The notes: generated by a model not told the origin, from the letters alone. Positions 4,377 through 33,641 are shown, counted from the stretch's first letter. The stretch is 37,138 nucleotides of DNA from Thermoplasmatota archaeon (GCA_041636435.1 JBFKTF010000001.1:1-37138); one strand, 5' to 3'. Translations and numbers: made by a program.

Positions 4377-4458
4377 CGAACGGCCAACCGTTCGATCGTT
4401 TGGGCGGCGTCCGGCTTCGCCGGAGCCACCCCCATCCGCACCCCCTTTTCCTCCAGTT

Positions 4459-4764: not shown

Positions 4765-5019
4765 TTGACAGACGACGACCTGCGCTTCAACGTGCTCAAC
4801 CACACGATCGTCCCCCAGCACATGATTCTGGCTGAGGACGACGTACCCACGCTCCTTGCGAAATACAACATCGTGAAGGAACAATTGCCCAAGATCAAGA
4901 GCAGCGATCCGGCCGTCAAGGTCATCGGTGCCAAGGTGGGCGATGTTGTCCAGATCATTCGCCCAAGCGCCACCGCCGGCCGCTTCACCGCCTACCGCCT
5001 CGTTGTCGAGGCCCTCTGA
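4765..5019 (+). CDS. rpoH: DNA-directed RNA polymerase subunit H (Rpo5)
   Basis: 84 aa. [60 protein letters not shown] matches the Rpb5 C-terminal domain pattern. TTG start with AGGTGA 4 nt upstream. Sits first in the rpo cluster. Confidence 0.92.
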
Positions 5020-12749: not shown

Positions 12750-12751
12750 AC

Positions 12752-13042
12752 ATGGACGTACAACGCAGCCTGAGAACCGCCGTCGCCAGTGGCAATGTGC
12801 TCATCGGAGCCGACCAAGCCAACAAGGCGATCGGTCGCGGGGAGGCCAAACTGGTCATCCTTGCGAACAACTGTCCCGCCGGGGATGACATCCGCCAGTC
12901 CGCCAAGGACAAGCGCGTCCCCGTCTACGACTTCGCCGGCATGGGAACCCAACTGGGTCCCGCATGCGGCAAGCCGTTCGCCATCTCTGCCCTCGCCGTC
13001 ATCGACGCCGGCGAATCCGACATCCTGCAGCTGACGAAGTAA
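12752..13042 (+). CDS. rpl30e: Ribosomal protein eL30 (L30e)
   Basis: 96 aa. GNVLIGADQANKAIGRGEAKLVILANNCP...VPVYDF fits the L30e/L7Ae fold pattern. GGAGG 7 nt upstream. Canonical position after rpoA2. Confidence 0.9.
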   Translation: MDVQRSLRTAVASGNVLIGADQANKAIGRGEAKLVILANNCPAGDDIRQSAKDKRVPVYDFAGMGTQLGPACGKPFAISALAVIDAGESDILQLTK

Positions 13043-13043
13043 G

Positions 13044-13496
13044 ATGCGCGACCTCGAACTCTCCATGGAGACCATCGGCCTCATCACCGAGGCCGAGAAG
13101 CGCCTGCGCGCCCGCATCGTCGACGCCATCGACGAAGGCGAACGCGTCGTGTTCGTGACCGCCAAGGGCCACCTCGGCCAGGCGCTCGGCAAGGAGGCCA
13201 AGAACCTGGAGATGATGCGCCAACTTCTGAAGAAGGACGTCAAGTTCGTGGAATACGACGAGGACCAGCAGGTCTTCGTCCGCAACCTGTTCAAGCCGTT
13301 CGACCTCAGCTCCATCCGCATGGAGACTGGCGGCACCACCACCGATGATGGCGAGGAGCGCATCCGCACCCGCGCCATCGTCGAAGTGGAGGCCAAGGAC
13401 AAGGGCAAGGCCATCGGCAAGGGCGGCCGGAACATCAGTTCCATCCGCCACATCGCCAAGCGCCACCACGACATCGACGAAGTGCAAGTCATCTGA
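13044..13496 (+). CDS. nusA: Archaeal NusA-like protein (two KH domains)
   Basis: 150 aa with GQALGKEAKNLEMM and GKAIGKGGRNISSI KH-type GXXG loops. Canonical position after rpl30e. Confidence 0.88.
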   Translation: MRDLELSMETIGLITEAEKRLRARIVDAIDEGERVVFVTAKGHLGQALGKEAKNLEMMRQLLKKDVKFVEYDEDQQVFVRNLFKPFDLSSIRMETGGTTTDDGEERIRTRAIVEVEAKDKGKAIGKGGRNISSIRHIAKRHHDIDEVQVI

Positions 13497-13601: not shown

Positions 13602-14531
13602 CTACGCGTCGGGGTGGTATTCCCCGTCGGCTTGGAGCGTCCAGCCTTCGGGCGGAGCGTGATTGAAGAAGCCGCTGGCATAGAGCGAGTACTTCTGCTG
13701 CAACACGACGCCGGGGCCCACGGCCGTGCCGGGAATGCACCCCTGGTAGCAGCCGGGGAACACGGTGGCGCGGAAGCCGCCGGGGAATCCGGTTTCATTG
13801 AGGCCGGCACCCCCGCCACCGGTGCCGTCGCCGTTGTCGCACACCGCCTCGCGGGTCACGGTGCACACCAGGGGGCTGGGCCCCCAGACGTTGCCCACCC
13901 GTTGGCTCTCGCCGCCATCGGGCGCCGCGACGTATGCGATGATGCCCAGGTCGCGGCCGGTTTCCTGGGTCTGGGTCCACACGATTTCGGCTTGGAGGAC
14001 TTCGGGCATGACGTCGGTGCCGAAGTCGATGACCTCGTTGCGATCGGGGTCGCCAAGGGACGAGCACATGTTGGGGAAGACAATCCACATGACGAACGCG
14101 CAGCCGATGTACCCGTCGAATGCGGAGAACACGCTGAACGGTTCGCTGCCTGGGATGCGTTGGACCATGACGCGGAGCACGTCGGGTTTGGCGACGCCCG
14201 CCTCGACTTGGGTGCTGGTCTGGACCTTGGCGTAGCCTGGCTTCGTGACCTCCACGAAGTAGCTGCCCGGCTCCAGATCCAAGAACAGGAAGGTGCCGTC
14301 CGCGCCCGTCACCACGGCTTGATCATGGCCGACCAGGGTGGCGGTTGCGCCTTCGATGGGCGTGATGGCCTCGTCGATGATGACACCGCGAATGACGCCC
14401 TTGTCGTCCTGCACGTCATCCGGCTCCACCGTGGGTCCGCAGTGCTCCATGCAGTCGGCAATCGGCTCCGGTGCCCCGGCGCATCCAGCAAGACTGGCGA
14501 CGAGGAGCATGGCGATGACGGGCGTGCGCAT
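13602..14531 (-). CDS. Paralogous lipoprotein P1: lipobox, CarboxypepD_reg-like beta-sandwich, unknown Cys-containing C-terminal domain
   Basis: MRTPVIAMLLVASLAGC; GVIRGVIIDEAITPIEGATATL...GADGTFLFLDLEPGSYFVEVTKPGYAKVQTSTQVEAG; C-terminal QAEIVWTQTQ...GCIPGTAVGPGVVLQQ...FFNHAPPEGWTLQADGEY. Confidence 0.8.
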   Translation of the reverse strand: MRTPVIAMLLVASLAGCAGAPEPIADCMEHCGPTVEPDDVQDDKGVIRGVIIDEAITPIEGATATLVGHDQAVVTGADGTFLFLDLEPGSYFVEVTKPGYAKVQTSTQVEAGVAKPDVLRVMVQRIPGSEPFSVFSAFDGYIGCAFVMWIVFPNMCSSLGDPDRNEVIDFGTDVMPEVLQAEIVWTQTQETGRDLGIIAYVAAPDGGESQRVGNVWGPSPLVCTVTREAVCDNGDGTGGGGAGLNETGFPGGFRATVFPGCYQGCIPGTAVGPGVVLQQKYSLYASGFFNHAPPEGWTLQADGEYHPDA

Positions 14532-14577: not shown

Positions 14578-15477
14578 TCAGGAGGGCACAGGGTATTCGC
14601 CGTCCTTCTCGAAGGTCCAGCTTTCGTCGGGGTCGATGTTCCAGAACATGGTGACGTAGCCCACGAATGGTTGGTCCAACGTCGCGCCGGTCGCGAAGGC
14701 CGGGCCATCGGCGCTGACATCCACGCCGACCCACCATTGATCCAGGCTGTCTTTGCCGAAGTTGGCTTTGGCTTGGTCCATGAAACCAGCGGGCGTGCGG
14801 ATGACGGCGGGGCTCTGGTAGGTGCCTTCGCCCCAGCGTTCGCCGGCGGCGATGGTGCCGGGGCAACTCTCGTAGTTCTCCGGCGGGCAGAGGCTTTGGA
14901 TCAGGTACAGGTTTTCGCTGGCCGGCTGGGTGTTCTTCCAAATGATCTCCACTTGGATCCAGTCGGGCTCCCCGTTGACGATGTACTCCAGGTGGTAGTC
15001 GTCCTCCTTGCCCAGTTCTTCGCCACAGTAGCCGTAGGTGATGGGGACGCCCCAACCACAAGCCACGAAGCCCTCGTCCTTGAACGTAATCGCCGCGGGC
15101 TCCGTGCCCGGGATGGGCAGCATCTGGATGCGCACGGCGGGCGGGTTGGCGATGTCGGCTTCGACGATGGTCGACTGTTGGATGCTGCCCCAGCCGGGCT
15201 TGCTGGCCAACAGGAAGTAAGCGCCCGGGTCCAAGTCAACGAACGTGAACGTGCCATCGGGCCCGGTGACGGCTTCCTCGCCGCTCTCTTGGACCTCGAC
15301 GGTGACGCCCTCGATGGGTTGCACGGTGCCATCGATGACCACGCCACGGATGGCGCCCTTGCCGGCCGCCACGCGGTCAATCTGTGGCACGTCGTCCTCT
15401 TCCTCGGTGGCCGGGGCATCCCCGGCGCAGCCTGCCAGGACGACGGAGAGGACGATGGCGGCAGCTAGGATTCGCAT
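14578..15477 (-). CDS. Paralogous lipoprotein P2 (same family)
   Basis: From ATG 15477: MRILAAAIVLSVVLAGC; GAIRGVVIDGTVQPIEGVTVEV...GPDGTFTFVDLDPGAYFL; QVEIIWKNTQPASENLYLI; FWNIDPDESWTFEKDGEY. The 14 codons upstream in the track ORF are unsupported. Confidence 0.8.
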   Translation of the reverse strand: MRILAAAIVLSVVLAGCAGDAPATEEEDDVPQIDRVAAGKGAIRGVVIDGTVQPIEGVTVEVQESGEEAVTGPDGTFTFVDLDPGAYFLLASKPGWGSIQQSTIVEADIANPPAVRIQMLPIPGTEPAAITFKDEGFVACGWGVPITYGYCGEELGKEDDYHLEYIVNGEPDWIQVEIIWKNTQPASENLYLIQSLCPPENYESCPGTIAAGERWGEGTYQSPAVIRTPAGFMDQAKANFGKDSLDQWWVGVDVSADGPAFATGATLDQPFVGYVTMFWNIDPDESWTFEKDGEYPVPS

Positions 15478-15483
15478 AGGTTC

Positions 15484-16293
15484 ATGTTCTCGTTGCGCCA
15501 AGAAAACCGCTCCGGCCACGTCCTGAAAGCCTCATGGGGGCAATGGCCGCCCATCCCCTGGCTTGGCAAACCCCTAAGCCACGGCATCGGTGGGCCGCCT
15601 GTGTCCCGCTCCGTCCAGGAGATGTTCGGCCGCATCGCGCCCAAGTACGACCGCGCCAACACGGTGCTCAGCATGGGCCAGGACCGCTCCTGGCGCCGCC
15701 TGGCCGTCCGCATGGCCGACGTGCAACGCGGCGACCACGTCTTGGACGTCGCCTGCGGCACGGGCCCATTGAGTCGGGCGTTGGCCAAGGCCGTGCGCCC
15801 GGACGGCTCCGTCATTGGCGTGGACTTCACCCAAGGGATGCTGGACGTCGCCACCAAGCGCGGCGGCCGCCCCGAGGATGCGCCCATCATGTACCAATGG
15901 GCGGACGCCCAGGAGTTGCCCTTCGAGGACAATCGCTTCGATGCGGCCACCATCGCGTTCGACATCCGCAACGTGGATGACCCCGGCAAGGGCGTGGCCG
16001 AAATGCACCGCGTCGTCAAGCCTGGCGGCCGCGTCGTGGTCTTGGAGTTCGGCCAGCCCAAGGGGCCCGTGGGCGTCGGTTACCGCACGTACGCCCGCCA
16101 CGTCATGCCCCGCATCGGCGGCATGCTCACCGGCGACCGCAAGGCGTACGAGTACCTGCCCCGCACGGCGGCTGCCTTCCCGGCGGGCAAGGACTTCGTG
16201 GACCTGATGGAACGCTCGGCCGCATGGGGTGGCGTCCGGGCGCGCCGCCGCATGGGCGGCTTGGTTTGGTGCTACGCTGGCACCGTCGCCTAG
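15484..16293 (+). CDS. ubiE: Demethylmenaquinone methyltransferase (UbiE/MenG family)
   Basis: FGRIAPKYDRANTVLSMGQDRSWRR, SAM motif VLDVACGTG, and RVVVLEFGQP...YLPRTAAAFP. The start is uncertain: in-frame GTG 15601 (GGTGG upstream, giving 230 aa) or ATG 15622 are as plausible as ATG 15484. Confidence 0.85.
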   Translation: MFSLRQENRSGHVLKASWGQWPPIPWLGKPLSHGIGGPPVSRSVQEMFGRIAPKYDRANTVLSMGQDRSWRRLAVRMADVQRGDHVLDVACGTGPLSRALAKAVRPDGSVIGVDFTQGMLDVATKRGGRPEDAPIMYQWADAQELPFEDNRFDAATIAFDIRNVDDPGKGVAEMHRVVKPGGRVVVLEFGQPKGPVGVGYRTYARHVMPRIGGMLTGDRKAYEYLPRTAAAFPAGKDFVDLMERSAAWGGVRARRRMGGLVWCYAGTVA

Positions 16294-17126
16294 GGGACGT
16301 ACTCGCCGTCGGCGATGAAGCTCCACTCGGGGTCCGGTTCGGGGATGTTGTAGAAGAACGTCCCATAGACCTGGAATGGTTGGTCCAGCGCCACGCCCGT
16401 GCCATTGGCCGGGCCGCCGGGGCTCGCCCAGACGCCCAGCTGCATGCTGGTGCGGTTGTCGCCCGTCGTGCGGGCAATGTGGGGGCTGGAGAAGATGCCC
16501 TCACTGAAGCGGCCATCGAAGCCCCAGTCGCAGGGGTCGCCGCAGATCTTGGAGATGAGGTAGAGTTCGTTGCCGGCGGGCTGCGTGGACTTCCATTGCA
16601 CTTCCACTTGGACGTGGTCCGGGTTGCCGCCGTAGGGGATCGTGACCTGGCTCTTGTCTTGGTCGTCGAGGCCGGGGCATTGGTGGATGGTCAGGGGCGT
16701 GCCGGCACCGCATTGGACGAAGCCTTCGGCGGTGAACGTCATGGCGCTTGGGAGGCTCTCGGGGTAGAACTCGAGCATGACGCGCACGATGTCGGGCTTG
16801 GCCACGTCGGCGACCACGAGCACGCTTTGCTGGACGCGGCTCCAGCCGGTCTTCTCGATGGTGATGAAGTGGTTGCCGGGCTCGACGTCGACGAACTGGA
16901 ACGCGCCATCGTCGCTGGAAAGAATCGATTCGCCGCCTTGCAGCGTCACGGTGGCCTCGGGGACCGGCACAATGCTGGTGTCGACGACGACGCCGCGGAT
17001 GACGCCCAAGCCGCTGCCGACGTTGGCTGGCTCGTCGAAGAGGTCTTCTTCGGGGTCAACGGGGGCGTTCTCGGCGCAGCCGGCAAAGCCGATGGCGAGC
17101 AGGAGCAGGGCGGCGAGGAGGCGCAT
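16290..17126 (-). CDS. Paralogous lipoprotein P3 (same family)
   Basis: From ATG 17126: MRLLAALLLLAIGFAGC; GVIRGVVVDTSIVPVPEATVTL...DDGAFQFVDVEPGNHFI; QVEVQWKSTQPAGNELYLI; FYNIPEPDPEWSFIADGEY. Confidence 0.8.
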   Translation of the reverse strand: MRLLAALLLLAIGFAGCAENAPVDPEEDLFDEPANVGSGLGVIRGVVVDTSIVPVPEATVTLQGGESILSSDDGAFQFVDVEPGNHFITIEKTGWSRVQQSVLVVADVAKPDIVRVMLEFYPESLPSAMTFTAEGFVQCGAGTPLTIHQCPGLDDQDKSQVTIPYGGNPDHVQVEVQWKSTQPAGNELYLISKICGDPCDWGFDGRFSEGIFSSPHIARTTGDNRTSMQLGVWASPGGPANGTGVALDQPFQVYGTFFYNIPEPDPEWSFIADGEYVP

Positions 17127-17222
17127 CGGTCCAGTACGGCGCTGCCGGGGCATGAAGCATTGGGTGGTCGGGGCCATGGCACTGCGACAAACGCATCCAG
17201 GATAAGGATTCCGTGGAATCAG

Positions 17223-22145: not shown

Positions 22146-23762
22146 TCAAAGATGCTGCGCGAGCGCCTTGCCGGCGGCCTCGTGGGCTTGGCGATGCAGG
22201 GCCTGTCGCTTGTGGGCCTCGCCGCCGGGGGTCTCCACAATGGTGACGCCCGGATCGAGCTTGGCCAATCCAGTGGGCGTGGCGAAATGCACGGGCACCT
22301 CGGCGGCGTAGCATGCGGTCTCGATGTCGAGACCTGGCGGCGTGACGAACAGTTCCTGGAACCGCGTCGTGGCCGCGGCGACGGGCAGGTGTTCGAAGAT
22401 GCGGCCACCTCCGTTGTCGATGACGACAAGGGACAGCGCATCGTGCCATAGTGCCAGGCTGGATTGATCGTGGGCAAACGCCAAATCGCCGATGATGGCC
22501 GTGGTGGGGCCGCTGCGAGCGATGCCGGCAGCGGTGGCGATGGTGCCGTCGATGCCACTGGCGCCGCGGTTGGCCAAGACGTCGATCGTGGCACCGCTGC
22601 GCCCGTAGCGCTCCAAGTCCCGCACCGGCATGGAGTTGCCCACGAAGATGCGCTCGGGTGCGCCCGCCAACAGCGAGGCGACCCAGGCGGCTTCGTCGTG
22701 GTCCTCGGGCACCACGTCCGCCACGGCGGCGTCCATGGCGCGCCAGAGGGCGGCCCATGCGTCGGCGCCCGGCATCGGGGCGGCTTCCTTGGTGGCCTTG
22801 TCCATCCAACGCGCCGGATCGGCGTCGGTCATGTCGCACGGGCCAATGTCGTCCCAGCCGCGACCCGACCAATCGAAGCGCAGCCGATTCTCCGCTCGCG
22901 CCAGGTACCTGGCCAGGTGGCGGCTCGTGGGCGTGGCACCGAATTGGACGACCCAATCCGCTTTGGGCAACGCGTCCAGGTCGGCGAAGCGATCGGCGCC
23001 CGACACCACGTCGAGGCCCGCAAACCGCAGACCCGACAAGCAGTCCGCGACGATGGGTGCCTGCAACGCCGCCGCGAGGCGCTTGATGGCCGGCGCCAGG
23101 TGACGCCCTGTCTTGGGGCCACACACGATGAGGCCCCGCGGCCCGAGGTGGCCGAGGCTGACTTGAGGCAAGTCGCCGCTGGGCTGGGGCTGCGCCGGGG
23201 GCTTGGTCTGGCGGCGTGCCTGCTTGGCCAGTGCCCGCAGCGCCTCGTGTCCGCCGCCGTCCGGCTCCAAGGGCTTGTCGAATGGTTGGTTGAGGTGGAT
23301 GGGCCCCAGCGGGTAGCTGCCCAACGCGTCCGCGATGCTTGGCGGGATGGCGTGGGCATCCGGCATCGGCAGGTCGACGGAGCTCCGCGCCACGCGGTCA
23401 AACAAATCGACTTGGTCGATGGTCTGGTTGCTGCCGGTGTCGCGCAGCCGAGGCGGCCGGTCGGCAGTGAGCGCCACCAAGGGCACGTTGGCTTGGTGGG
23501 CCTCCGTCATGGCGGGCCACAGGTTGCTGACGGCGGTGCCACTCGTGGTGATGACGGCGGCCGGTCGTCCCGTGCCCAACGCAACGCCCAATGCGTGGAA
23601 CGCGGCGCCGCGCTCGTCGATGTGGATCGTGGTCTCGATGTCCGGATGGGCGTCCACGGCCAGCGCCAGGGGCGTGCTGCGGCTGCCCGGGCAGAGCGTG
23701 GCGTGGCGCACGCCAAGGGATGCCAGGTGCTCGAGGATGGCGATGCTGGCCTGCGTGTTCAT
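22146..23762 (-). CDS. menD: SEPHCHC synthase (2-succinyl-5-enolpyruvyl-6-hydroxy-3-cyclohexene-1-carboxylate synthase), ThDP enzyme
   Basis: From ATG 23762: [33 protein letters not shown]...[31 protein letters not shown]...GASGIDG. The ATG overlaps the menF stop (ATGA). Confidence 0.9.
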
Positions 23763-24874
23763 GCCAACTCCCGCAAGGTGGCCAACTTGTCCTCGGTCTC
23801 CTGCCATTCGGCTTGGGCCTCGGAGCCGGCCACGATGCCCGCTCCCGCGAACAAGGTCCGGCGATCACTATGTTGGTGGGCGCAGCGCAGCGCCACGTTC
23901 AGCACCCCCTCGCCCTGGGCGTCAAACCATCCCACGGCACCGGCGTACCAGCCCCGGGGAACGTCCTCCAGTTCTCGGATGATGGCGAGGCTGCGGCGAC
24001 GGGGCGTGCCGCACACCGCCGGCGTGGGGTGCAACCGCGCGGCGATGTCCAGGATGTGTGTCCCGGGCGGCGCGGTGCCCTCCAGGGGTGTCTCCAAGTG
24101 CGTGACGTGGCGCAGATCGCGACGCCTGCGCGGGGATTGTTGAATGGAATGGATGCCCGACTCGACGAGCCGTTCCCGGACGAAGGCCGCCACCAGTTCG
24201 TGCTCCAGGATGTCCTTGTCCGCGGAACTGAGGTGCTCGGCCGCGCCGTTGCGTGCGGTGCCGGCCAAGGCGTGGGTCTCCACGCGGCCATCCTGCAAGC
24301 GCACCAGGGTCTCGGGGGTGCAGCCAAAGAACGTGGCCCCGCGTTGGAACAAGAACGACGTGCCCTCTTCCAGGCCTCGCAGGGCGTGGAATGCGGCCAT
24401 GGGGTCCCCGGCATCGATGCAGCGGCTGCGCGCCAAGACCACCTTCGCCACGTCGCCGCCGCGGATGGCGTCCGTGGCGGCCTGCACCATGCGGGCCCAA
24501 TCGTCTTGGTCCACGTGGCTGCTGGCCAAGGCACCCCCCTCGGGTACCTCCACGTCCGGGGCCGCGATGGTGGTCTCAAACAACGCCCCATCCGCCCAGA
24601 CCCATTGCCTTCGCGGCAACGTGAAGCAGGCATCGGGGAAGCCCGACCACGCATCGCCGGGCGCGAATCCGATGCCGCCGGTCCAGCGTGGGCGCCCCGC
24701 AGCGGGGCCTTCGTACGCCAGGGGTTGGTCCACGGCCGCGCGCAACGCCTCCATGCGCCGCTCCCCTTGGGCATGGGCCACGGCCACCACGCCCGCCTGG
24801 ACAATGGTCTCCGAGCCCGACCAGACCGCAACGGGGCCTTGGCATTGGTCCAAGATTTCCTCCACGCTGCGCAT
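23759..24874 (-). CDS. menF: Isochorismate synthase
   Basis: LAGTARNG..., CGTPRRRSLAIIRELEDVPRGWYAGAVGWFD and AGAGIVAGSEAQAEWQETEDK are chorismate-binding motifs. Start is ATG 24874 (371 aa); GTG 24904 is possible. ORF codons further upstream run antisense to the wHTH gene. Confidence 0.85.
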   Translation of the reverse strand: MRSVEEILDQCQGPVAVWSGSETIVQAGVVAVAHAQGERRMEALRAAVDQPLAYEGPAAGRPRWTGGIGFAPGDAWSGFPDACFTLPRRQWVWADGALFETTIAAPDVEVPEGGALASSHVDQDDWARMVQAATDAIRGGDVAKVVLARSRCIDAGDPMAAFHALRGLEEGTSFLFQRGATFFGCTPETLVRLQDGRVETHALAGTARNGAAEHLSSADKDILEHELVAAFVRERLVESGIHSIQQSPRRRRDLRHVTHLETPLEGTAPPGTHILDIAARLHPTPAVCGTPRRRSLAIIRELEDVPRGWYAGAVGWFDAQGEGVLNVALRCAHQHSDRRTLFAGAGIVAGSEAQAEWQETEDKLATLRELA

Positions 24875-25021
24875 GGGGACTTCCTGGCCACGGCCGATGA
24901 ACACAATCGGCCCACACCGGTCGCCGTCAAGGGCATTTCCACTGGGCCCTCCTGGGCGATGGGCCTCTGGGGGCCAGGGGTTGGACTCGAAGTTCAACCT
25001 TCGCAGGGGGGTGCCATATGC

Positions 25022-25273
25022 ATGGATGGCCCATGCACTGCCATGGCCTGCCACGACCTCGTCCAACGCATCGACGGCCCCGCCTCCATGAAGACGGTGG
25101 CCAGCGCACTCTGCCACGACCGCATGACCCTGAAGGACCTGCAACTCCGCTCCGGCCTGGCCCGGCGCACCGTCTACGGGGCGCTGCGGCGCCTGCGCGA
25201 CATGGGGCTCGTGCAAGAACTCCCCAATCTCCGGGACACGCGCCAATCGTGGTACGTCCTGCGGTCCACTTGA
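25022..25273 (+). CDS. Small winged-helix DNA-binding protein (MarR/TrmB-like wHTH)
   Basis: The tail of the frame-2 ORF reads ...MKTVASALCHDRMTLKDLQLRSGLARRTVYGALRRLRDMGLVQELPNLRDTRQSWYVL, a helix-turn-helix plus wing. The start is uncertain among four in-frame ATG codons starting at 25022. The TGA overlaps the next ATG. Confidence 0.6.
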   Translation: MDGPCTAMACHDLVQRIDGPASMKTVASALCHDRMTLKDLQLRSGLARRTVYGALRRLRDMGLVQELPNLRDTRQSWYVLRST

Positions 25274-26418: not shown

Positions 26419-26612
26419 CGATGGAACACCGGTGGGTGCGGTGGCCCATCGCGCTCGTCGCCGGCTTTGGGGCCATCGCGGTGCTGGCCCTCGTCATGCA
26501 GCAAATCATCCAGGGGGCGTTGGGCGTCCGCTGGGTGATCCACTGGTTCGAGACGGTGCCGTTCATCGCCCTGCTGTTTGCCTACCTCATCGACAGGCGG
26601 TTGCGGGCTTAG
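26415..26612 (+). CDS. Small membrane protein (65 aa, two TM segments)
   Basis: MTMEHRWVRWPIALVAGFGAIAVLALVMQQIIQGALGVRWVIHWFETVPFIALLFAYLIDRRLRA, with an ATGA overlap with the DUF3179 gene. Confidence 0.5.
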   Translation: MTMEHRWVRWPIALVAGFGAIAVLALVMQQIIQGALGVRWVIHWFETVPFIALLFAYLIDRRLRA

Positions 26613-27562
26613 AACTCGTATTCGCCTTCGTCGATGAATTCCCAGTCTTCCTCGGGGATGTGGTTGTAGAACAGGGTCACGTAGAACGCGACTTCCTGGT
26701 CGATGGCCACGCCGACACCCCAAACGGTGCCCGGAACGCACTGGACACCGCAGTTGCTGAACAAGCCGATGGCGAATTGCTGGTTCCAGCCATTGCCGTC
26801 GTTGATGGTCGTGAAGTTGTTGCCCCCGCCGCCAATGTCCTCACTGGCCACGTTGTTGTTGACGCGGCAGATGAGGGGGCTCTCGCCGCGGATGTTGCAG
26901 ATGCGGTCACTGCCGGTGCCGCTGGTGCATCCGGCGTTGTCGCGGTTGCATTGGATGGTGACCAGGCCGCTGCTGAGGGGCTGGTTGGCCTTCCAGAAGA
27001 CCTCGGATTGGAAGTGGCTGGGGGCGTCGGGGCGACCCGCGTCGAAGACGCCCATGCTGTTGTCGCGGTCGCGCATTCCGGCGGCTCCCGTGGGGTCGCA
27101 GGAACCAGCGTCCCAGACAAAGTTCAGCGTCTTGAAGCCGCAGGAAATGAATGCCTCGTAGTACAGGGTCTGGGCGCTGGGCAGCTCGCTGGGGTTCAGT
27201 TCCACTTGGATGCGCAGCATCTCCGGCTTGTCGACGCCCGCCTGGACCTGGGTGCTGGATTGGACCTTGCCGTAGCCGACCTTCTGGACGTCCAAGAAGT
27301 AGGCGCCGGGCTCCAAGTCCGTGAAGAGGAACAAGCCGTCCTCGTCGCTTTGGGTCTCCAGGCCCAAGTTCTTGATGGCGATGGTGGCGTCCGCCACCGG
27401 GCGAATCTCCGTGTCGATGATGACGCCGCGAATGACGCCCTTGTCGTCGGCGACCTCGACGTCCTGGAACTTCTCGGGTTCCGCTTGGGCATTGACCGGA
27501 GCAGGGTCGGCGCAGCCGGACAAAGCGACGGCCACCAACATGAAAGCGACAAGGACGCGCAT
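26609..27562 (-). CDS. Paralogous lipoprotein P4 (same family, closest to P1)
   Basis: From ATG 27562: MRVLVAFMLVAVALSGC; DDKGVIRGVIIDTEIRPVADATIAI...EDGLFLFTDLEPGAYFLDVQKVGYGKVQSSTQVQAG; QSEVFWKANQ; QCVPGTVWGVGVAIDQ; FYNHIPEEDWEFIDEGEY. Confidence 0.8.
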   Translation of the reverse strand: MRVLVAFMLVAVALSGCADPAPVNAQAEPEKFQDVEVADDKGVIRGVIIDTEIRPVADATIAIKNLGLETQSDEDGLFLFTDLEPGAYFLDVQKVGYGKVQSSTQVQAGVDKPEMLRIQVELNPSELPSAQTLYYEAFISCGFKTLNFVWDAGSCDPTGAAGMRDRDNSMGVFDAGRPDAPSHFQSEVFWKANQPLSSGLVTIQCNRDNAGCTSGTGSDRICNIRGESPLICRVNNNVASEDIGGGGNNFTTINDGNGWNQQFAIGLFSNCGVQCVPGTVWGVGVAIDQEVAFYVTLFYNHIPEEDWEFIDEGEYEF

Positions 27563-27583
27563 GCGAGGGCCTCGGATTCCCGC

Positions 27584-27588
27584 TATTT
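27584..27588 (-). promoter_or_regulatory. Candidate TATA-like element for P4 (GTCAAATAGCG on the minus strand)
   Basis: AAATA lies 22-26 nt upstream of ATG 27562, in the 53-nt gap after the DUF547 stop. Confidence 0.35.
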
Positions 27589-27615
27589 GACGGTTGTTGG
27601 CGTCCTGTGCAAGTC

Positions 27616-28275
27616 TCAGGCCTTGTTCAGGGTCCAATCGTAGCGAAGCCACTGGATGCGGGGGTGGTTGGCGCGGGCCCATAGCACGTCGCTCTTTCCG
27701 CCGTACTTGTGGAACACTTCCCTGGGCGATCCGATGCGGGCGAAGTCCTTGCGGAACCACTTGAGAATCGTGGGCAAGTACAGCACGTTGGCCGCCCGGT
27801 CCAGGCGGGCGTCGGCCATGAACGCCCGGCCCGCCAATTCGAGTTCTTCGTGCAGGTCCTCGCCGTGGTAGATGCCCTCGCGCAGCGGGGGGCACCCCGC
27901 GGTGGCACAAACCAAGGCAAAGTGGCCCCGCGGGTCGCGGCGCAGGAAGGGCTTGAGGCGCCGGTATTCCAGCGTCGCCAGGGTGCTCCACTTCCCCGCG
28001 ACCTTGAATGGGGTCAGGAAGAAGAAGACGAACCGCGTCCACGGGTTGCGCAAGGAACCGCGCACCTTGCCATCGCGATACAAGCGACGTTGCACGGCCC
28101 GGATGGTGCAGATGTTGTATGCGTTGAGCAGGAACGCGTACTGCGCGGTTTCGGGCATGCCGCGGAGGTTCGCCTTGGCGATGGCGTCCAGCGCCTCTTG
28201 GAGGTCGTCTCCCTTGATGGCATCGTAGTCGACGCCATCCGAAGAGGCGTGGACCAACACCGCGTCACCCGTCAA
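27616..28275 (-). CDS. DUF547 family protein (cytoplasmic, no signal peptide)
   Basis: AFLLNAYNICTIRAV...STLATLEYRRLKPFLRRDPRGHFALVCATAGCPPL...ELELAGRAFM fits the DUF547 pattern. There is no in-frame ATG downstream of the P5 stop, so TTG 28275 (or GTG 28260) is proposed. The track ORF start at 28587 lies inside P5. Confidence 0.7.
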   Translation of the reverse strand: MTGDAVLVHASSDGVDYDAIKGDDLQEALDAIAKANLRGMPETAQYAFLLNAYNICTIRAVQRRLYRDGKVRGSLRNPWTRFVFFFLTPFKVAGKWSTLATLEYRRLKPFLRRDPRGHFALVCATAGCPPLREGIYHGEDLHEELELAGRAFMADARLDRAANVLYLPTILKWFRKDFARIGSPREVFHKYGGKSDVLWARANHPRIQWLRYDWTLNKA

Positions 28276-28322
28276 TGCGTCGTCACCGGCGTGTAGTGGA
28301 AAACGTCGATGGTGCGAGTTGG

Positions 28323-29222
28323 TCAGACCATGCCATCGTTGGCGAAGACCCAACCTTCTGGTGGCACCATGTTGTAGAATGAGGCCGCGTACGTGTGGAT
28401 TCGCTGCTGCACCACGATTCCAACCCCGGCTTCCGGCGCGATCGGGTCGCCGCAGACGGTGCAGTCTGCCTTCACGAGCAGGCCGATGCCCACGCCGGAT
28501 CCGCGGCCATGGCCGACGGCACCGATGGTGCTGATTTGCCCGACCGTGCCGCTGGCGGCCACGTCCTCCAGCGTGGAGCGGCACCACAGGGGGCTGCTAC
28601 CCCAGTGCTGGCACATGGTCCAACCATTGAGGGGGTTGCAGTACGCGCCACCGGTGCAACTGGCCCACGTGGAGGTCAGGCTGTCGCCCAGGGCCTGGGT
28701 GTTGTCCCAGACCACTTCCACTTGCACTGCGTCGGGCACGCGGTCTTCGGCGGGCAAGAAGATGGCGTTGTCGGGCGCGCCGAATTGGCCCGTGCCCCCA
28801 TCGCAGGATTCGATGAATGTGGCCACGATGGCCTCGCACGCGATGAAGCCCACGTACTCCGTGATGATGCCATAGGGCAGCGTGCTGGCCAGTGGCTCCA
28901 AGGCGACGCGGACGTCGGCCACCTCGCCAGCGACGACCTGCACGCTGGTCTGCGTCGGGATGAAGTCCGTGGCGTTGAAGCCCAAGAAGTGCGCTCCCGG
29001 GGGGACGTCCTTGAACGCAAAACGACCATCGTCCCCGGTGGTCGCTTCGATGCCGCTCAACGCGACGCGGACGCCGGGCAACGGGTTGATGGCCCCATCC
29101 GTGACGAGGCCCCGGATGGCGCCGAGGGTGGGCACGTCCGCCACCGGCTCCGCCGCGTCCTCTTGTTGGGCGCAGCCTGCAAGGGAGGCCAACAGCAGGA
29201 GGGCCAGGACGGAACGACGCAT
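28323..29222 (-). CDS. Paralogous lipoprotein P5 (most divergent member)
   Basis: MRRSVLALLLLASLAGC; GAIRGLVTDGAINPLPGVRVAL...GDDGRFAFKDVPPGAHFL; QVEVVWDNTQ; EAGVGIVVQQ; FYNMVPPEGWVFANDG. Confidence 0.8.
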   Translation of the reverse strand: MRRSVLALLLLASLAGCAQQEDAAEPVADVPTLGAIRGLVTDGAINPLPGVRVALSGIEATTGDDGRFAFKDVPPGAHFLGFNATDFIPTQTSVQVVAGEVADVRVALEPLASTLPYGIITEYVGFIACEAIVATFIESCDGGTGQFGAPDNAIFLPAEDRVPDAVQVEVVWDNTQALGDSLTSTWASCTGGAYCNPLNGWTMCQHWGSSPLWCRSTLEDVAASGTVGQISTIGAVGHGRGSGVGIGLLVKADCTVCGDPIAPEAGVGIVVQQRIHTYAASFYNMVPPEGWVFANDGMV

Positions 29223-29262: not shown

Positions 29263-29913
29263 TTAGCTCGGGCGCTTGCCCACCAGCATCAAGGAACCCA
29301 TCTCGGTGAGGCGGATCGTCAGGCGGCCGAATGTGGCGCGGTCAATGTGCACCAAGCCCATGTCCTCCAGGCCCTTGCCTTCCCGCGTCGTGCGCAGGTG
29401 GTAGCTGAGCAGGCTCTTCTCCACGCCGCTGGCCTCGGACAACGCCGCCAAGGACTCCGCGTGTCCCCCCATGGCGTCGAGGCTCTGCAGGATCTTGTAC
29501 TTGGCATCCGAAATCAGCTCCGCGTAACTGAACTTCAGGACGGGCAAGGAGAACGGTCCATCGGGGGCGATCCCGATGGCCGGGATGCCGTTGACGAACG
29601 CCGCCGACAAGGCACTGCAGGTCTGCATTTTCTCGCCGCTGCTGACGTTGATGAGGACATCCGTGAAGCCCATTTCTTCGCCTTGCAGGTTGCTTACCTT
29701 GTGCAAGGTGTCCATGAGCATGTCCTCGTCGTCGACCTCCAAGGATTCCACCTCGATGTGGAGTGGTTCGAGCTTCTGGCGAATCTCCTGGGCTTGGGCA
29801 GCGAACTTGTCGGGGTGGAGGAGGATGAGTTTGCGGACCGGATAATCGCGCACGCCGATGAGCACCGGATCGATGTCGTCGCCGACGGTGGCGATCATCA
29901 GGACCTTGGACAC
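29263..29913 (-). CDS. Csa3-like regulator: N-terminal CARF-like Rossmann domain plus C-terminal winged helix
   Basis: (V/M)SKVLMIATVGDDIDPVLIGVRDYPVRKLILLHP...DVLINVSSGEKMQTCSALSAAFVNG parallels the Csa3 layout (beta1 xxTxGF, and the D/N-x-S/T-x-G-x-K/R motif). The C-terminus ISDAKYKILQSLDAMG...LSEASGVEKSLLSYHLRTT...GLV is a wHTH. Start is GTG 29913 or ATG 29898. The track ORF start at 30195 lies inside the helicase gene. Confidence 0.7.
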   Translation of the reverse strand: MSKVLMIATVGDDIDPVLIGVRDYPVRKLILLHPDKFAAQAQEIRQKLEPLHIEVESLEVDDEDMLMDTLHKVSNLQGEEMGFTDVLINVSSGEKMQTCSALSAAFVNGIPAIGIAPDGPFSLPVLKFSYAELISDAKYKILQSLDAMGGHAESLAALSEASGVEKSLLSYHLRTTREGKGLEDMGLVHIDRATFGRLTIRLTEMGSLMLVGKRPS

Positions 29914-29944: not shown

Positions 29945-32900
29945 CTACTGAGCGAGTCGCGCCCGCTCCACGGCGCCCACGATCCGGCGCACTTGCTTGT
30001 CGGGGTCGTGCAACCAGTTGCGACTCCACACGCGCACCACGGACCAACCACGGGACTCCAGGAATTCTTGCCGTTGCACGTCCCGCTCCCGGGCGCCATG
30101 GGCGGCGCGGAAGTTGGGGCCATCCAATTCCACGGCCACCAAGAAACGCTCCGGGTCCTCCTTCGTGGCGACGGCGATGTCGATGCGGTAACCACTGTAG
30201 CCCACCAGCGCCTTGGCCACGTATCCTTCGTCTTCCAGCGCCTGGCAGAGGCGGCGGTGCATGCTGGTCGGGGGGCTGGCCCGGCCGGAGCGTTGGGTGC
30301 CTTCGGCGACGCGGGCCAACACGGCCTCGGCGGTGCCGCGGTCGCCCCGGTCGACGGCGCGGGCGTACTCCAAGTAGGCGCGCAGGTGCTTGGGTCCCAG
30401 GTGGGTGCTGGATTCCACTTGCAGGTCCTCGGGGTCCATGCTCGTCACGACGTGCACTTGGCTGCGGGCGCGGGTGATGGCGACGTTCAGGCGGTGTTCG
30501 CCGCCGCGTTGGTTGAAGACGCCGAAGCGGTTGCTGAGCTTGCCCTCTGCGTCGGGGCCGTACGTGGTGGAGAACACCATGACATCCCGTTCGTCGCCTT
30601 GCACGTTCTCGATGTTCTTGATGAACGGTCGCCCATCGGCGTCGGCTTGCAACGCACGGGCCCAATCGGCGGCGAATTCGGTGTCCACTTCGCAGCGAGC
30701 ATCGATGCGTTCCTCGATCAGTTCCCGCTGTGGTTGGTTGAAGGTCACGACGCCGACGCTGGGGGGCTCGGGGCGGGACAACAAATCGGCCAAGATGTCC
30801 ACGATGGCGTCGGCTTCGACGCGGTTGCGGCGGTCCACGAAGCGGCCCTCCACGCGGTGGTATCGGATGGGCCTTGCACCGTGGTCCGGGTTGGGCACCA
30901 CCTTGAGGCCACCACCGTAGTAGGCCTGGTTGCTGAACTCCACCAGTTCTTGGTGCTCGCTACGGTAATGCCATTCCAACATGTGGCAACCAAAGGCAGC
31001 CTGGGCCAGACTCAGCAAACTGTCCGTTTCCAATTCGGGCTCGTCGTCCTCGCCTTGGCCACGGAACAAATCGAATGGTGGCAGTTGTTGTTCGTCGCCC
31101 GCGACCACGATGCGCTTGGCGCGGTAGATGGCGGGCAGGGCACGCTCCACGGCAAGTTGGCTGCCTTCGTCGAAGACCACCAAATCGAAGCTGCCCGACT
31201 CCAGAGGGTGCACCGCGGAGACCGCTTCTGGGCTCATGAGCCAGCACCGCGCGGCGCGGTCCCAGACGTGGCCCAGGCGCACGTCGTGCAGCAATTGGCG
31301 CATCGTGGGGATGCGGCGCTTGCGGCGCAACAAGGCGCCGGCCTGGTTCCATGCCCGGGCATCGCCGGTGGGGTTGCGTGCCAATTCCCGCATGGCGGTG
31401 CCGATGCCGTCGGCCATGCGGCGGCGGCGTTCGTTCAAGATTATCGCCAGGCGGTCCCGCTTGCGGGCATGGTCGTGGAACGGGTCCCCACGGAGCATGG
31501 GAATCTCTTGTTCCAATTCGGCAATCCAAGCCGCCAGCACCTCTTGCGTGATGCCGTGGGCCGCTGCATCACCAAATTCGCGCAGGCCCAGCAGCACAAG
31601 GCGCCGCGCGGCGACGGGCAACTCGCCCAAGTGGCGGTCCACTTGCACCAGCGTCTCCCAGTCGCGGCAACCGTCGCGCCACGCGGCCACGACCTCGAGG
31701 CTGTGGTCGGCGTCGTCTGTGATGCGGTTGCGCATGCGCGCACCCACCACGTCGTCGAGTGCATCCAATGCATCGAGCACGCGCAGGCCTTGGCGGATGC
31801 GCGCGGCCCACTCGGCGGCGTCCTGCTCCGAGGCCGCGACGCCCGACAGGAACGCTTGCACGTGGGTGCGGGCGGTGCGCCATTCGGGGTCGACGCGGCG
31901 CAGCATGCTGCGGCGCTTGGCCATCCACGTGGTGAACGCGTGCAGGTCGGCTTCCAGGTCTTTGCGGGGGCCGATGTGGTAGGGGCGCTCCAATTCGTCG
32001 CGCAAGCGATCCAGGCGTTCCTCGACGTCGGCCCGGCGGGGTGCGTCGTGGCCCAGGTCCCGGCGGCCGGCCCACACGTGGTCGATGCGGTACCGGCGCA
32101 CGTCGGCGCCAATGTCTTGGATGGCCGCCGTGGCGCGCTCCACGTCGGACCATTGCACGTCGTGCAAGTCGCGGTGGCCCGCCAAGCGCACCGTGTGGTC
32201 CGGGTCCGCTTCGGCGTGGATTTCATGGATGGTCTTGCCTCGGTGCGTCTGGCCAAAGACCTCCACGATGGCGTCCAAGTCATCCACGAGGCGGTCCACC
32301 TCATCGCATAGTGGGCGCAGGTCGGGGACACCCGGCGTGGGTCCGTCGATGAGCCGCGCCAAGGCCTGGAATGCCGCCTTCCGGTCGGCGTTGGGGTCGT
32401 GCACCAAGAGGCAGATGTCGTCCAGTCCGGCTTGGCGCAGCCGCTCGTGCACCACGTCCAATGCGGCGCGCTTCTGGCACACCACCAACACGCGCTGGCC
32501 ATGACGCAACGCGTCCGTCACGAGGTTGGTGATGACCTGCGACTTGCCCGTGCCCGGGGGTCCACGAATCACCGTGCAGGGCGTGGCGCGGGCACGCAGC
32601 ACCACGTCCGTTTGTTTGCCGTTGGCGGCCAGGACGTTGCCGATGTCGTTGTCGGCCACGGCATCCACGTGGGGCACCTCCACGTCCGTGGTCAAATCCG
32701 CTGGCAAATCCAGCAAGTGCTTCAGGAGCTCCATGCCGTCGCCGTCGGCGGCCGCAATGAGGCCGTCGTAATCGGCGTGGATGGGTTCGTTGGCCTGCGG
32801 AAAGTCCCCCATGACCACGTGGCGGGCCAAGTGGAGTGGCGCATTCTGCGTGGCGCGGTCTTCCTTGGTCATGGGCGCCAAGGCCTGCGTGGCGCCATCC

Positions 32901-33562
32901 ATCAGCGGCGCCAAGATGCCATGCTGCTGCAACAGATCCTCCATGTCCGCCAAGAGCTGATCCAGGTCGAACTCGCCCGCGGGCAAGTCCGAAAAACGTG
33001 CCACCAGGTCCTCCAAGCCATCGATGAGGGTGTCCTGGATGCGGGTGTCCTGCACCTTCGCGACCGCCGCCAAGAGGGCCTTGTTGACGGCGGGGTGGGC
33101 GCCTTCGCGTAGACTGGCATGCCATCCACCCGGCCGGCTGCCGGGTCGGTGCTCGATGTCGATGGGCAACAACAGCAACGGGCCACGGACCCACGTGTCT
33201 TGGTCCAACTTGCCCGTCAAGAACGGGAAGCCCAAGTGGCCCGATTCGAGGCCGGTCTCTTCGCGTTGCAAGTGCAAGTGGCGGCGCATCGCCACCAAGC
33301 GGGCACGGGCCTCGCTGGCTTCCGGACTGGTGTCGCGGTCCGGCACGATGCAGGAACTGCGGCCCGAGAGGACGCGACGAATCGTCGTCGCGGCCAGCTC
33401 ATGGTCATGGCCCAAATCGAGGCCGCGGCGCTTGGGGAGCGTCGCCAACATGATGCTCGGATTGCGCGCCGTGATGTGCAGCAACCGGTCGCGCAAGAAG
33501 GTGAGTCGGGAGGGGAGATCGGGGGACGAAGCGTGCTTGGACTGAGAGGAAAAAGCGCTCAC
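29945..33562 (-). CDS. Large SF1 (Upf1-like) helicase: N-terminal DUF4011-like region, C-terminal Vsr/DUF559-like (PD-(D/E)xK) endonuclease domain
   Basis: 1205 aa, GTG start. N-terminus LTFLRDRLLHITARNPSIML. Walker A IRGPPGTGKSQ. A helical insert of about 450 aa. Motif II LVVFDEGSQ...VVAGDEQQLPP. Then YRSEHQELVEFSN, ENVQGDERDVMVFS and GEHRLNVAITRAR. C-terminus GYRIDIAV...LVAVELDGPNFRAAHGARERDVQRQEFLESRGWSVVRVW. Confidence 0.85.
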   Translation of the reverse strand: MSAFSSQSKHASSPDLPSRLTFLRDRLLHITARNPSIMLATLPKRRGLDLGHDHELAATTIRRVLSGRSSCIVPDRDTSPEASEARARLVAMRRHLHLQREETGLESGHLGFPFLTGKLDQDTWVRGPLLLLPIDIEHRPGSRPGGWHASLREGAHPAVNKALLAAVAKVQDTRIQDTLIDGLEDLVARFSDLPAGEFDLDQLLADMEDLLQQHGILAPLMDGATQALAPMTKEDRATQNAPLHLARHVVMGDFPQANEPIHADYDGLIAAADGDGMELLKHLLDLPADLTTDVEVPHVDAVADNDIGNVLAANGKQTDVVLRARATPCTVIRGPPGTGKSQVITNLVTDALRHGQRVLVVCQKRAALDVVHERLRQAGLDDICLLVHDPNADRKAAFQALARLIDGPTPGVPDLRPLCDEVDRLVDDLDAIVEVFGQTHRGKTIHEIHAEADPDHTVRLAGHRDLHDVQWSDVERATAAIQDIGADVRRYRIDHVWAGRRDLGHDAPRRADVEERLDRLRDELERPYHIGPRKDLEADLHAFTTWMAKRRSMLRRVDPEWRTARTHVQAFLSGVAASEQDAAEWAARIRQGLRVLDALDALDDVVGARMRNRITDDADHSLEVVAAWRDGCRDWETLVQVDRHLGELPVAARRLVLLGLREFGDAAAHGITQEVLAAWIAELEQEIPMLRGDPFHDHARKRDRLAIILNERRRRMADGIGTAMRELARNPTGDARAWNQAGALLRRKRRIPTMRQLLHDVRLGHVWDRAARCWLMSPEAVSAVHPLESGSFDLVVFDEGSQLAVERALPAIYRAKRIVVAGDEQQLPPFDLFRGQGEDDEPELETDSLLSLAQAAFGCHMLEWHYRSEHQELVEFSNQAYYGGGLKVVPNPDHGARPIRYHRVEGRFVDRRNRVEADAIVDILADLLSRPEPPSVGVVTFNQPQRELIEERIDARCEVDTEFAADWARALQADADGRPFIKNIENVQGDERDVMVFSTTYGPDAEGKLSNRFGVFNQRGGEHRLNVAITRARSQVHVVTSMDPEDLQVESSTHLGPKHLRAYLEYARAVDRGDRGTAEAVLARVAEGTQRSGRASPPTSMHRRLCQALEDEGYVAKALVGYSGYRIDIAVATKEDPERFLVAVELDGPNFRAAHGARERDVQRQEFLESRGWSVVRVWSRNWLHDPDKQVRRIVGAVERARLAQ

Positions 33563-33592
33563 ACGTACTCTTTGTTTTCAAGCCCTCAAAGC

Positions 33593-33608
33593 CCTTCGGG
33601 AACGAAGG
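33593..33608. other. Perfect 6-bp hairpin (CCTTCG-GGAA-CGAAGG) in the gap between the MscS-USP and helicase genes
   Basis: Read directly from the sequence. It lies in the 79-nt intergenic gap. On the minus strand it is followed by GCTTTGAGG. It could be a terminator or processing element, or nothing. Confidence 0.3.
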
Positions 33609-33641
33609 TCGAACGATGCGCTCAAGACGGTACGTGCGTTG

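Follow-up and report, generated by a model that had tools for sequence, protein, structure and literature searches.

Hhe was reportedly first described by Gao et al. in Science in 2020. It is a single-gene defence system with a Vsr domain which is reported to be active against lambda, T3, T7 and PhiV-1, and its weak protection against T7 is abolished in the nuclease-site mutant E1731A of the E. coli protein (bioRxiv 10.1101/2022.06.16.496414). A T7 knockout screen yielded seven class II DNA-metabolism genes as potential Hhe triggers, and its authors concluded that Hhe senses gene functions, not the proteins themselves (bioRxiv 10.1101/2024.10.10.617714). A phage open reading frame (ORF) counteracts hhe, and hhe is an exchangeable cargo of pipolins and plasmids. 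For ProA, no source publication was found in our literature searches and the label rests on NCBIfam; the name PDC-S37 was not found in a literature search, and the PDC series is given as 145 guilt-by-embedding candidates, described as untested. The literature search brought up no work on the mechanism or structure of Hhe or ProA, and the closest entries in the PDB are generic Upf1-like helicases. Here we describe a gene related to these systems in a 37,138-nt stretch of DNA from a Thermoplasmatota archaeon (GCA_041636435.1 JBFKTF010000001.1:1-37138), called the window, with positions counted from its first nucleotide. The gene, complete with its stop codon at 29945..33562 on the minus strand, begins with GTG in the ORF listing and encodes a helicase-nuclease of 1205 aa. 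By analogy, and with slightly better than even confidence, we are inclined to regard it as a stand-alone helicase-nuclease defence gene against viruses or plasmids, like the bacterial single-protein systems Hhe and ProA.

Domain architecture and predicted structure

The initial annotation of this DNA had proposed four modules in the polypeptide, and all of them were recovered by Pfam above the gathering thresholds. DUF4011 matches residues 81-165 (26.8 bits against a threshold of 22.2), AAA_11 scores 58.3 bits, AAA_12 covers residues 858-1041 (65 bits), and MTES_1575 (PF18741) covers residues 1103-1196 (86 bits against 38.2), where it is overlapped by a DUF559 match (PF04480; 27.6 bits). DUF3320 (PF11784), also named in that annotation, has no Pfam match in the 1205-aa protein, and the chain stops 6 residues past the nuclease domain. 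Every motif quoted earlier is present at its place, namely LTFLRDRLLHITARNPSIML (residues 20-39), the Walker A motif GPPGTGKSQ (334-342), motif II VFDEGSQ (796-802), VQGDERDVMVFS (987-998), NVAITRAR (1026-1033), and the nuclease motifs YRIDIAV (1125-1131) and VAVELDG (1142-1148).

An AlphaFold2 model built on 49 homologues (predicted local distance difference test, pLDDT, 88.5; predicted template modelling score, pTM, 0.80) was used together with Pfam and conservation to delimit the domains, whose positions are all given for the minus strand. After a disordered tip (residues 1-15), an N-terminal alpha/beta domain with the DUF4011 match occupies residues 16-300 (32663..33517; Pfam, model and conservation). 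The first part of the RecA-like domain 1A (residues 311-393; 32384..32632; conservation and AAA_11) contains Q317, the Walker A motif and motif Ia VCQKRAALDVV. It is followed by an all-helical insertion of 377 aa (residues 394-770; 31253..32383), as assigned by DSSP on the model, with three long helices of 29-37 residues. The second part of domain 1A (residues 771-860; 30983..31252; conservation) carries motif II DEGSQ (798-802) and motif III GDEQQLPP (822-829), and domain 2A (residues 861-1050; 30413..30982; AAA_12, conservation and Foldseek) carries NIENVQGDERD (983-993) and GGEHRLNVAITRAR (1020-1033). A helical linker in the model leads from RecA2 to the Vsr/DUF559-type (MTES_1575) endonuclease at residues 1100-1199 (29966..30265; Pfam and conservation), with D1128, E1145-x-D1147-G, E1159-R-D1161 and R1164. 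The claim that domain 1A is interrupted by a charged helical insert of about 450 aa agrees with the 456 residues between Walker A and motif II; residues 394-770 are purely helical and 34% of them are D, E, K or R. Residues 541-790, scanned alone, matched no NCBIfam or PADLOC model. Like the N-terminal DUF4011 domain, this helical arm is a module specific to the family.

The nuclease-domain profile matches the DUF559 structure 3HRL (E 0.008) and also RAP domains. This result fits the earlier placement of MTES_1575 in the Vsr family of restriction-endonuclease folds (PMC3710099). When the whole model was compared with the PDB by Foldseek, only Upf1-like SF1B (superfamily 1B) helicases were found, the best being SETX bound to single-stranded RNA (E 6e-15), with Aquarius, Upf1, IGHMBP2, Sen1, Dna2 and ZNFX1 among the further matches (E range 6e-15 to 1e-7); whole-model search of the PDB and BFVD gave generic SF1 helicases only. 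The best matches in a sequence search of the PDB were Upf1/NAM7 and IGHMBP2, with E down to 1e-10, and Dna2 was also found. Together with AAA_11, AAA_12 and the invariant motifs described below, these matches uphold the earlier call of a Upf1-like SF1 helicase core.

As the best structural matches (SETX with its RNA, Upf1, IGHMBP2, Sen1, Aquarius) are RNA or R-loop helicases and the best PDB sequence matches are Upf1/NAM7, the substrate might be thought to be RNA or an RNA:DNA hybrid. A Upf1/Sen1-like motor would then clear R-loops or transcripts while the nuclease nicks the DNA strand, and the protein would serve in the resolution of transcription-replication conflicts or in RNA-targeted defence. 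We consider this improbable: Upf1-like SF1B enzymes include DNA helicases and Dna2 was also matched, the fused Vsr/DUF559 domain has a DNA endonuclease fold (PMC3710099), the Hhe literature found describes a nuclease-domain system and nothing on RNA, and the sequence itself does not discriminate RNA from DNA.

The N-domain was also studied on its own. Residues 1-310 were modelled with pLDDT 89 and pTM 0.81, and a Foldseek search of this model against 350,542 PDB chains gave no significant match (best E 0.26, no template modelling score above 0.16). Exhaustive HMMER search of 1.84 billion representatives returned 316 matching cluster representatives. Those longer than about 1100 aa have lengths within the range of the short and long forms of the family, which are defined below, and the shorter ones are probably fragments. 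The N-domain lies at the N-terminus in proteins of 1200-1450 aa and about 400-900 residues into those of 1770-2320 aa. The confident model thus appears to represent a fold without a solved counterpart, and the domain is, as far as these searches and the model indicate, specific to the family.

Residue conservation

Conservation was assessed in an alignment of 49 sequences which are 29-66% identical to the query. Invariant residues occur in the N-domain (E102, G104, G117, P128, P133, N160, G252, F254, Q256), in the first part of RecA1 (Walker A G334-Q342 and C362-Q-K-R365), in its second part (D798, E799, S801, Q802, G822, D823, Q826, P829), in RecA2 (Q988-G-D-E-R-D993, L1025-N-V1027, R1031) and in the nuclease (E1145, D1147, G1148, E1159, R1160, R1164, G1172, W1173), where D1128 and D1161 are also kept in at least 90% of the sequences. 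In terms of helicase motifs, Walker A, DE, Q and motifs III, V and VI do not vary. The Vsr/DUF559-type nuclease seen in the initial annotation is thereby supported by its acidic residues as well as by the PF18741 score, and its catalytic residues proved to be conserved. Identity to distant homologues is 48-57% in the RecA parts, 43% in the nuclease, 29% in the N-domain and 19% in the insert, and despite this 19% the insert length is held at 369-422 aa across homologues. The alignment indicates that the helicase and nuclease catalytic machinery is under selection and that, as judged from sequence, an intact Upf1-like SF1B ATPase/translocase core and an intact Vsr/DUF559-type metal-dependent endonuclease are present on one chain.

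Profile matches to ProA, PDC-S37 and Hhe

To place the protein among named families, it was scored against the PADLOC and NCBIfam profiles. In PADLOC it reached 572 bits with PDC-S37 (E 8e-172) and 326 bits with Hhe, and in NCBIfam 624 bits with antiphage_ProA (NF058533; curated cut-off 1500) and 447 bits with Hhe_antiphage (NF042953; curated equivalog cut-off 2000). As controls for the ProA score, long proteins of Achromobacter (2051 aa) and Apibacter (1934 aa) gave 2360 and 2156 bits, and shorter ones, a Bacillus short form and a Legionella form of 1425 aa, gave 716 and 775 bits.

Segment scans showed that the protein is collinear with positions 453-1707 of the 1903 in the ProA profile. The DUF4011 region (residues 82-168) aligns to positions 453-538, and further segments follow in order at positions 648-868, 1303-1588 and 1602-1707 of ProA and at positions 294-514, 937-1224 and 1239-1343 of PDC-S37; no match was obtained to the first ~450 or the last ~200 positions of the ProA profile. 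The match to the Hhe profile is piecewise (positions 344-470 and 1282-1682 of 1797). ProA proteins, as annotated with Pfam, have the order N-terminal extension, DUF4011, AAA_11 with an insert of ~650 aa, AAA_12, MTES_1575 and DUF3320; their DUF4011 begins at residue 385-482, and PF11784 was found in all three long forms tested. The initial annotation had held that this architecture has no assigned function. Given the collinearity with the anti-phage proteins Hhe and ProA/PDC-S37 and the strong matches to all three, that statement is outdated.

Gene model and distribution of the family

The gene has a GC3 of 0.84 and a GC2 of 0.45, in line with the real genes of this window of 65% GC, and a database protein 100% identical to the 1205-aa product exists. 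The next in-frame methionine, Met38, would cut off the nearly invariant R33-N34-S36 motif, so GTG 33562 was retained as the start. Two ORFs lie opposite the gene on the plus strand, at 29993-32311 (772 aa) and 32399-33112 (237 aa); with GC1 of 0.84-0.87 and GC3 of 0.73 they were rejected as genes and taken for shadow artefacts of high GC. It turned out that 1340 homologues match at E<=1e-10, the top ones with the whole architecture, and by this measure the ORF is not a chance one. The archaeal origin proposed earlier is supported by RpoB, the split RpoA'/RpoA'' and a KH-only NusA encoded in the window, and homologues of the neighbouring CARF-like gene bear Thermoplasmatota labels.

We call proteins of ~1200-1450 aa without DUF3320 the short form and those of ProA type (1770-2320 aa) the long form. 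Among the 120 top matches, 65 are 1200-1299 aa long, and relatives occur in at least 595 GTDB species. A search of genome contigs listed 80 loci, among which the closest relatives of the window's gene do not appear. Members of the short-form clade come from Thermoplasmatota and Methanomassiliicoccales as well as from many bacterial phyla. In a neighbour-joining tree of 509 core columns, made with no bootstrap, outgroup or Hhe sequence, long and short forms separate, the window protein falls inside the short-form clade, and archaeal and bacterial sequences interleave there. Only two points can be taken from this tree, namely that short forms split from long ones and that archaea and bacteria interleave. 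As to the bacterial origin considered in the initial annotation, the interleaving was seen and no direction of transfer is supported.

On plasmids, relatives were found in 481 records, none of which covers at least 80% of the query. Those inspected or annotated are long proteins of Hhe/ProA type, such as the Klebsiella Hhe between insertion sequence (IS) elements. Only one match was obtained in phage-labelled records. Apart from this, one subgroup of ~1400-1450 aa, with P0013 and P0032 (1435-1441 aa) as examples, has a tail of ~200 aa past the nuclease without a precomputed DUF3320 hit, which may be a divergent winged helix-turn-helix (wHTH) module or a different C-terminal domain.

The separation of the two forms allows for a functionally distinct family of short DUF4011/SF1B/Vsr proteins, a reading that we find rather doubtful. 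In one variant they would be vertically stable maintenance enzymes, ancestral to the mobile forms, from which the anti-phage Hhe and ProA were recruited; in the other they would be minimal immune sensors, in which the N-domain, with its fold lacking a solved counterpart, recognises the trigger. If true, this reading would mean a widespread, unstudied DNA-processing enzyme common to archaea and bacteria.

Genomic context and proposed function

To see how the gene is embedded, we compared the window with related genomes. In L090, a related metagenome-assembled genome, the region is collinear, with MscS, helicase, HFX_2341_N (the CARF-like neighbour), lipoproteins, DUF547, DUF3179, MenF and MenD. 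The proteins of the window and L090 are 65% identical for the helicase, 64% for MenD, 61% for MenF, 63% for DUF3179 and 66% for the lipoproteins, and 80% and 88% for MscS and the CARF-like protein. L091, a more distant relative, keeps the order MscS / HFX_2341_N / lipoproteins / DUF3179 / MenF / MenD with the helicase missing; its CARF-like protein and MenD are 77% and 49% identical to those of the window. An 80-nt gap stands at the helicase position, and no helicase homologue was found in the 10.6-kb stretch of L091. Because L091 keeps this gene order without the helicase, the gene was gained or lost at the junction of MscS and the CARF-like gene, and by these comparisons it behaves as an accessory gene. 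A sister clade with 53-56% identity has it at another locus, in the order SNF transporter, helicase, S8 peptidase (present or absent), DUF1405 and XPD. Loci of Methanomassiliicoccales, of the metagenome contig L008 and of a Bacillus chromosome show differing contexts with no known defence genes.

For 28 short-form loci, the products of the two closest genes to the left and to the right were scanned (112 proteins), without a statistical background. The commonest flanking Pfam families are thymidylate synthase, DHFR, P-type ATPase, Mur ligase and D-Ala-D-Ala ligase, and no conserved neighbour gene was found across the 28 loci. PADLOC, run on the 112 proteins, recognised one clear type I restriction-modification neighbourhood (Bacillus salacetis) and a few mad3/mad8 matches. 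Thus the idea that homologues might sit in defence islands found little agreement in these loci, most flanks being housekeeping genes.

If the protein is a defence gene as we prefer, its motor would load on single-stranded or branched DNA of the invader, e.g. replication or recombination intermediates, and translocate 5'->3' with ATP, bringing the nuclease to cut the invader DNA. The N-domain and the helical arm would be substrate sensors or autoinhibitory elements gating the activity, and the short form would do so without two parts of ProA, its DNA-binding DUF3320 (double wHTH) and its N-terminal extension. As no conserved partner gene was found, the protein would act alone. By analogy, this reading is backed by the homology to ProA and Hhe, the experiments on Hhe, the conserved catalytic residues, the accessory behaviour of the gene and the lack of a conserved neighbour.

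Several observations weigh against it. The defence role of short forms would be carried over from tested long relatives, and the 1205-aa protein, which scores far below both curated equivalog cut-offs, looks like a compact relative and not a member; in the tree it belongs to a clade apart from the ProA-type long forms sampled. The histidine of the common 'FHS' motif, aligned by eye with His69 of Vsr, is Arg1152 in the clade of the window protein. PADLOC found no match in 10 other window proteins, and the window is not a defence island. Of the four nearest genes in the 28 loci, the great majority have housekeeping roles (ThyA, DHFR, Mur ligases, enolase), and synteny is stable within lineages. 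We had considered that the helicase might evolve faster than its neighbours and rejected it: with 65% identity against 60-66% for five neighbouring genes, it appears to evolve no faster than MenD and MenF, like its housekeeping neighbours. A mobile-element signature was rejected as well, since the flanks of the gene showed no convincing repeats, direct or inverted, and tRNA-Lys is 25 kb away; its GC content and GC3 are like those of the neighbours. Finally, the core genes of P. aeruginosa include a large DUF4011 gene, which flanks a defence hotspot (PMC10250203).

The main rival reading is a chromosomal genome-maintenance enzyme which, like Dna2, processes the cell's own DNA (stalled forks, flaps, gaps, recombination intermediates), with the defence by Hhe and ProA being a specialisation of long, mobile forms. 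Such an enzyme is possible, though on the unlikely side in our estimate. In its favour are the housekeeping neighbourhoods in the window, Methanomassiliicoccales, Bacillus and the 28 loci, the synteny kept within lineages, the divergence equal to that of MenD and MenF, and the lack of mobile-element hallmarks or compositional anomaly; Dna2 came up in both the structural and the sequence searches, the DUF4011 gene of P. aeruginosa belongs to the core genome (PMC10250203), and short forms are rare on plasmids, with no record covering at least 80% of the query. However, the gene is missing from the syntenic locus of L091, the sister clade has it elsewhere, it is spread patchily and interleaved over two domains of life, the only characterised relatives are anti-phage proteins, and none of the repair or replication genes is a regular neighbour. 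Conservation at core-genome positions with no variability, which the initial annotation had named as evidence against its proposal, was found in part: the housekeeping context and the synteny within lineages are there and keep a repair role alive. 'Defence or repair', the frame of that annotation, has held, and the defence reading remains the one we favour.

Other observations were made around the homologues. In four species of Clostridia (L038, L041, L042, L046; GC 28-42%), at about 8100-13450, the apparent order is DHFR (165-166 aa), ThyA (276 aa) and a short-form helicase-nuclease, a synteny derived from ORF sizes and family counts. It would mean that the gene has long stayed in a stable position beside nucleotide-metabolism genes. 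In L001 of the sister clade, a ParE-toxin-like gene and a PIN-domain gene, each beside a small ORF that is perhaps an antitoxin, lie at 3899-4962, ~5 kb upstream of the helicase-nuclease gene; they are the only conflict-type genes seen near the archaeal homologues inspected.

The CARF-like neighbour

Downstream of the helicase lies a gene of the DUF6293/HFX_2341 family (29263-29913, minus strand), which encodes a CARF-like Rossmann domain and a wHTH. The description of the neighbour as a CARF-wHTH gene was correct, with 43 bits for Pfam HFX_2341_N and PADLOC CARF3 models matching down to 2.6e-17. Its start is most likely GTG 29913 and not the first start codon of the ORF at 30195, since homologues begin MAKVLMIAT..., and the gap to the helicase is then 31 nt. 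The protein has 198 homologues, mostly labelled Thermoplasmatota or Thermoplasmata. In L091 the gene adjoins the same MscS gene without the helicase, and in L092 and L093 it stands in other contexts without a helicase neighbour. No homologue of this protein was found in the 87 other helicase loci compared. Metagenome scans for more empty or occupied sites, made with the CARF-like protein as a single sequence and then as an alignment, gave no matches. No CRISPR repeat family was matched in the window, and no Cas or cyclase family among the window proteins scanned against Pfam or PADLOC.

The helicase-nuclease could in principle be an effector switched on by this adjacent CARF-wHTH protein acting as the sensor of a cyclic-oligonucleotide signal. 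Both genes run in the same direction with about 31-46 nt between them, they are neighbours in the closest relative too, and the neighbour matches CARF models. Nevertheless, the occurrence of the CARF-like gene beside MscS or elsewhere without the helicase (L091, L092, L093), the conservation of its family in Thermoplasmatota, its 88% identity against 65% for the helicase, the lack of a CARF-like homologue in the 87 other loci and in Pfam-annotated contexts, the lack of matched CRISPR repeat, Cas or cyclase families in the window scans, and its position downstream of the helicase and not upstream make such control highly improbable, close to refuted. A CARF-coupled system was rejected on the empty-site and distribution evidence, the adjacency being seen only in the lineage of the window. 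As the CARF-like gene stays beside MscS when the helicase is missing, the adjacency is incidental, and gene order points to a by-product of the landing site of the helicase gene and not to a functional pair. The significance that the initial annotation implied for this neighbour is not supported, and a single CARF adjacency is a poor guide to function.

Other features of the window

Upstream of the helicase gene, from the MscS stop to the helicase start, 79 nt (33563..33641, minus strand) are conserved with the gene. They are ~90% identical to their counterparts in L090 and L004, whereas the flanking proteins are only 65-80% identical and the helicase 65%, and by eye they are unlike the 80-nt gap at the empty site of L091. 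The stretch occurs as a single copy in the window and is not unusually structured (fold z = -0.34), and it has no Rfam match, the Rfam scan of the window having given tRNA only. A structured RNA was rejected on these two results. The stretch is probably a promoter, leader or operator travelling with the helicase gene.

The genes of the window also encode S-adenosylmethionine synthetase, RNA polymerase subunits, NusA, UbiE, MenF, MenD, DUF3179 and DUF547 proteins, an MscS-Usp channel and CarboxypepD_reg lipoproteins. At least five paralogous genes for lipoproteins of ~300 aa with an N-terminal CarboxypepD_reg domain are scattered in it, all on the minus strand (13602-14531, 14578-15519, 16290-17177, 26609-about 27600 and 28323-29222), and such genes also occur in L090 and L091. 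In the translations of the ORFs at 26609 and 28323, CarboxypepD_reg is preceded by a lipobox-like signal. They look like an expanded surface-protein family of the lineage. The lipoprotein ORF 26609-28042 and the DUF547 ORF 27616-28587, both on the minus strand, overlap by ~430 nt; the lipoprotein most likely starts at an internal MRVLVAFMLVAVALSGCA signal near 27600, and the DUF547 domain begins at residue 142 of its ORF, so that both ORF starts are over-extended. Besides, genes of menaquinone type are present, a UbiE/MenG-like methyltransferase at 15484-16293 (plus strand) and MenD and MenF at 22146-25246 (minus strand); they are syntenic with L090 and L091, where an ECH_1 (MenB-like) gene comes after MenD.

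Comparison with known systems

The Upf1-like SF1B helicases (Upf1, IGHMBP2, Sen1/SETX, Aquarius, Dna2, ZNFX1) share with the window protein the RecA1/RecA2 core, the motifs and an insertion within domain 1A, the place where the 1B/1C accessory domains of Upf1-like helicases sit. They differ in that identity is 10-14%, the insert of the window protein is a large all-helical arm, and they lack the DUF4011 N-domain. The 5'->3' polarity assumed for the motor is carried over from the SF1B family. Dna2 is also a helicase-nuclease fusion, but its nuclease is an N-terminal PD-(D/E)XK domain with an iron-sulphur cluster, whereas that of the window protein is C-terminal and of Vsr type. The giant conflict proteins of MTES_1575 type (Anantharaman et al. 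2013, PMC3710099) likewise fuse a Vsr-family restriction endonuclease (PF18741) to an SF1 helicase, and they add HEPN, transglutaminase and two wHTH (DUF3320), none of which is present in the window protein.

Little of the defence repertoire of archaea has been charted, and in Thermoplasmatota in particular CRISPR systems are few (PMC12988326). Whether the gene is immune or housekeeping would decide between an archaeal defence gene and a repair enzyme, and this question, together with the N-domain fold without a solved counterpart, is what is worth keeping from the analysis. With 1205 aa and a confidently predicted fold, the protein is a convenient target for biochemistry and cryo-electron microscopy.

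Hhe and the window protein are alike in having DUF4011, a Upf1-like SF1 helicase (AAA_11/AAA_12) and a Vsr-type nuclease in one polypeptide, and NCBIfam calls Hhe a DUF4011-domain protein. With the Klebsiella plasmid Hhe (1893 aa), BLASTP identity is 38% over residues 727-1195 (RecA2 and nuclease) and 35% around Walker A. The acidic motif IECDG...RDRD of the Hhe nuclease resembles VELDG...RERD, the glutamate of ECDG being residue 1719 of the Klebsiella homologue. However, Hhe has ~1890 aa against 1205 aa and an N-terminal region that is barely alignable; the one Hhe context examined, in Klebsiella, is a plasmid locus between IS elements, whereas the window gene stands among housekeeping genes of an archaeal host.

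ProA/PDC-S37 is the best-scoring named family and has the same order of DUF4011, Walker A, helical insert, motifs II-VI and MTES_1575, with 36% BLASTP identity over residues 679-1196 to the bona fide ProA of Achromobacter. Unlike the window protein, ProA carries an N-terminal extension of ~370-480 aa and a C-terminal DUF3320 (double wHTH) of ~200 aa, its insert is ~650 aa against ~380 aa, and the ProA-type long forms make up a separate clade in the tree. The minimised version in the window shows the conserved core of the family, i.e. the DUF4011 domain, the helical arm, the motor and the Vsr nuclease, and makes it clear that the family can do without the wHTH tail and the N-terminal extension. 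In conclusion, the architecture is already known as the core of Hhe and ProA/PDC-S37, and the window protein belongs to a widespread short clade of this family that reaches into archaea.

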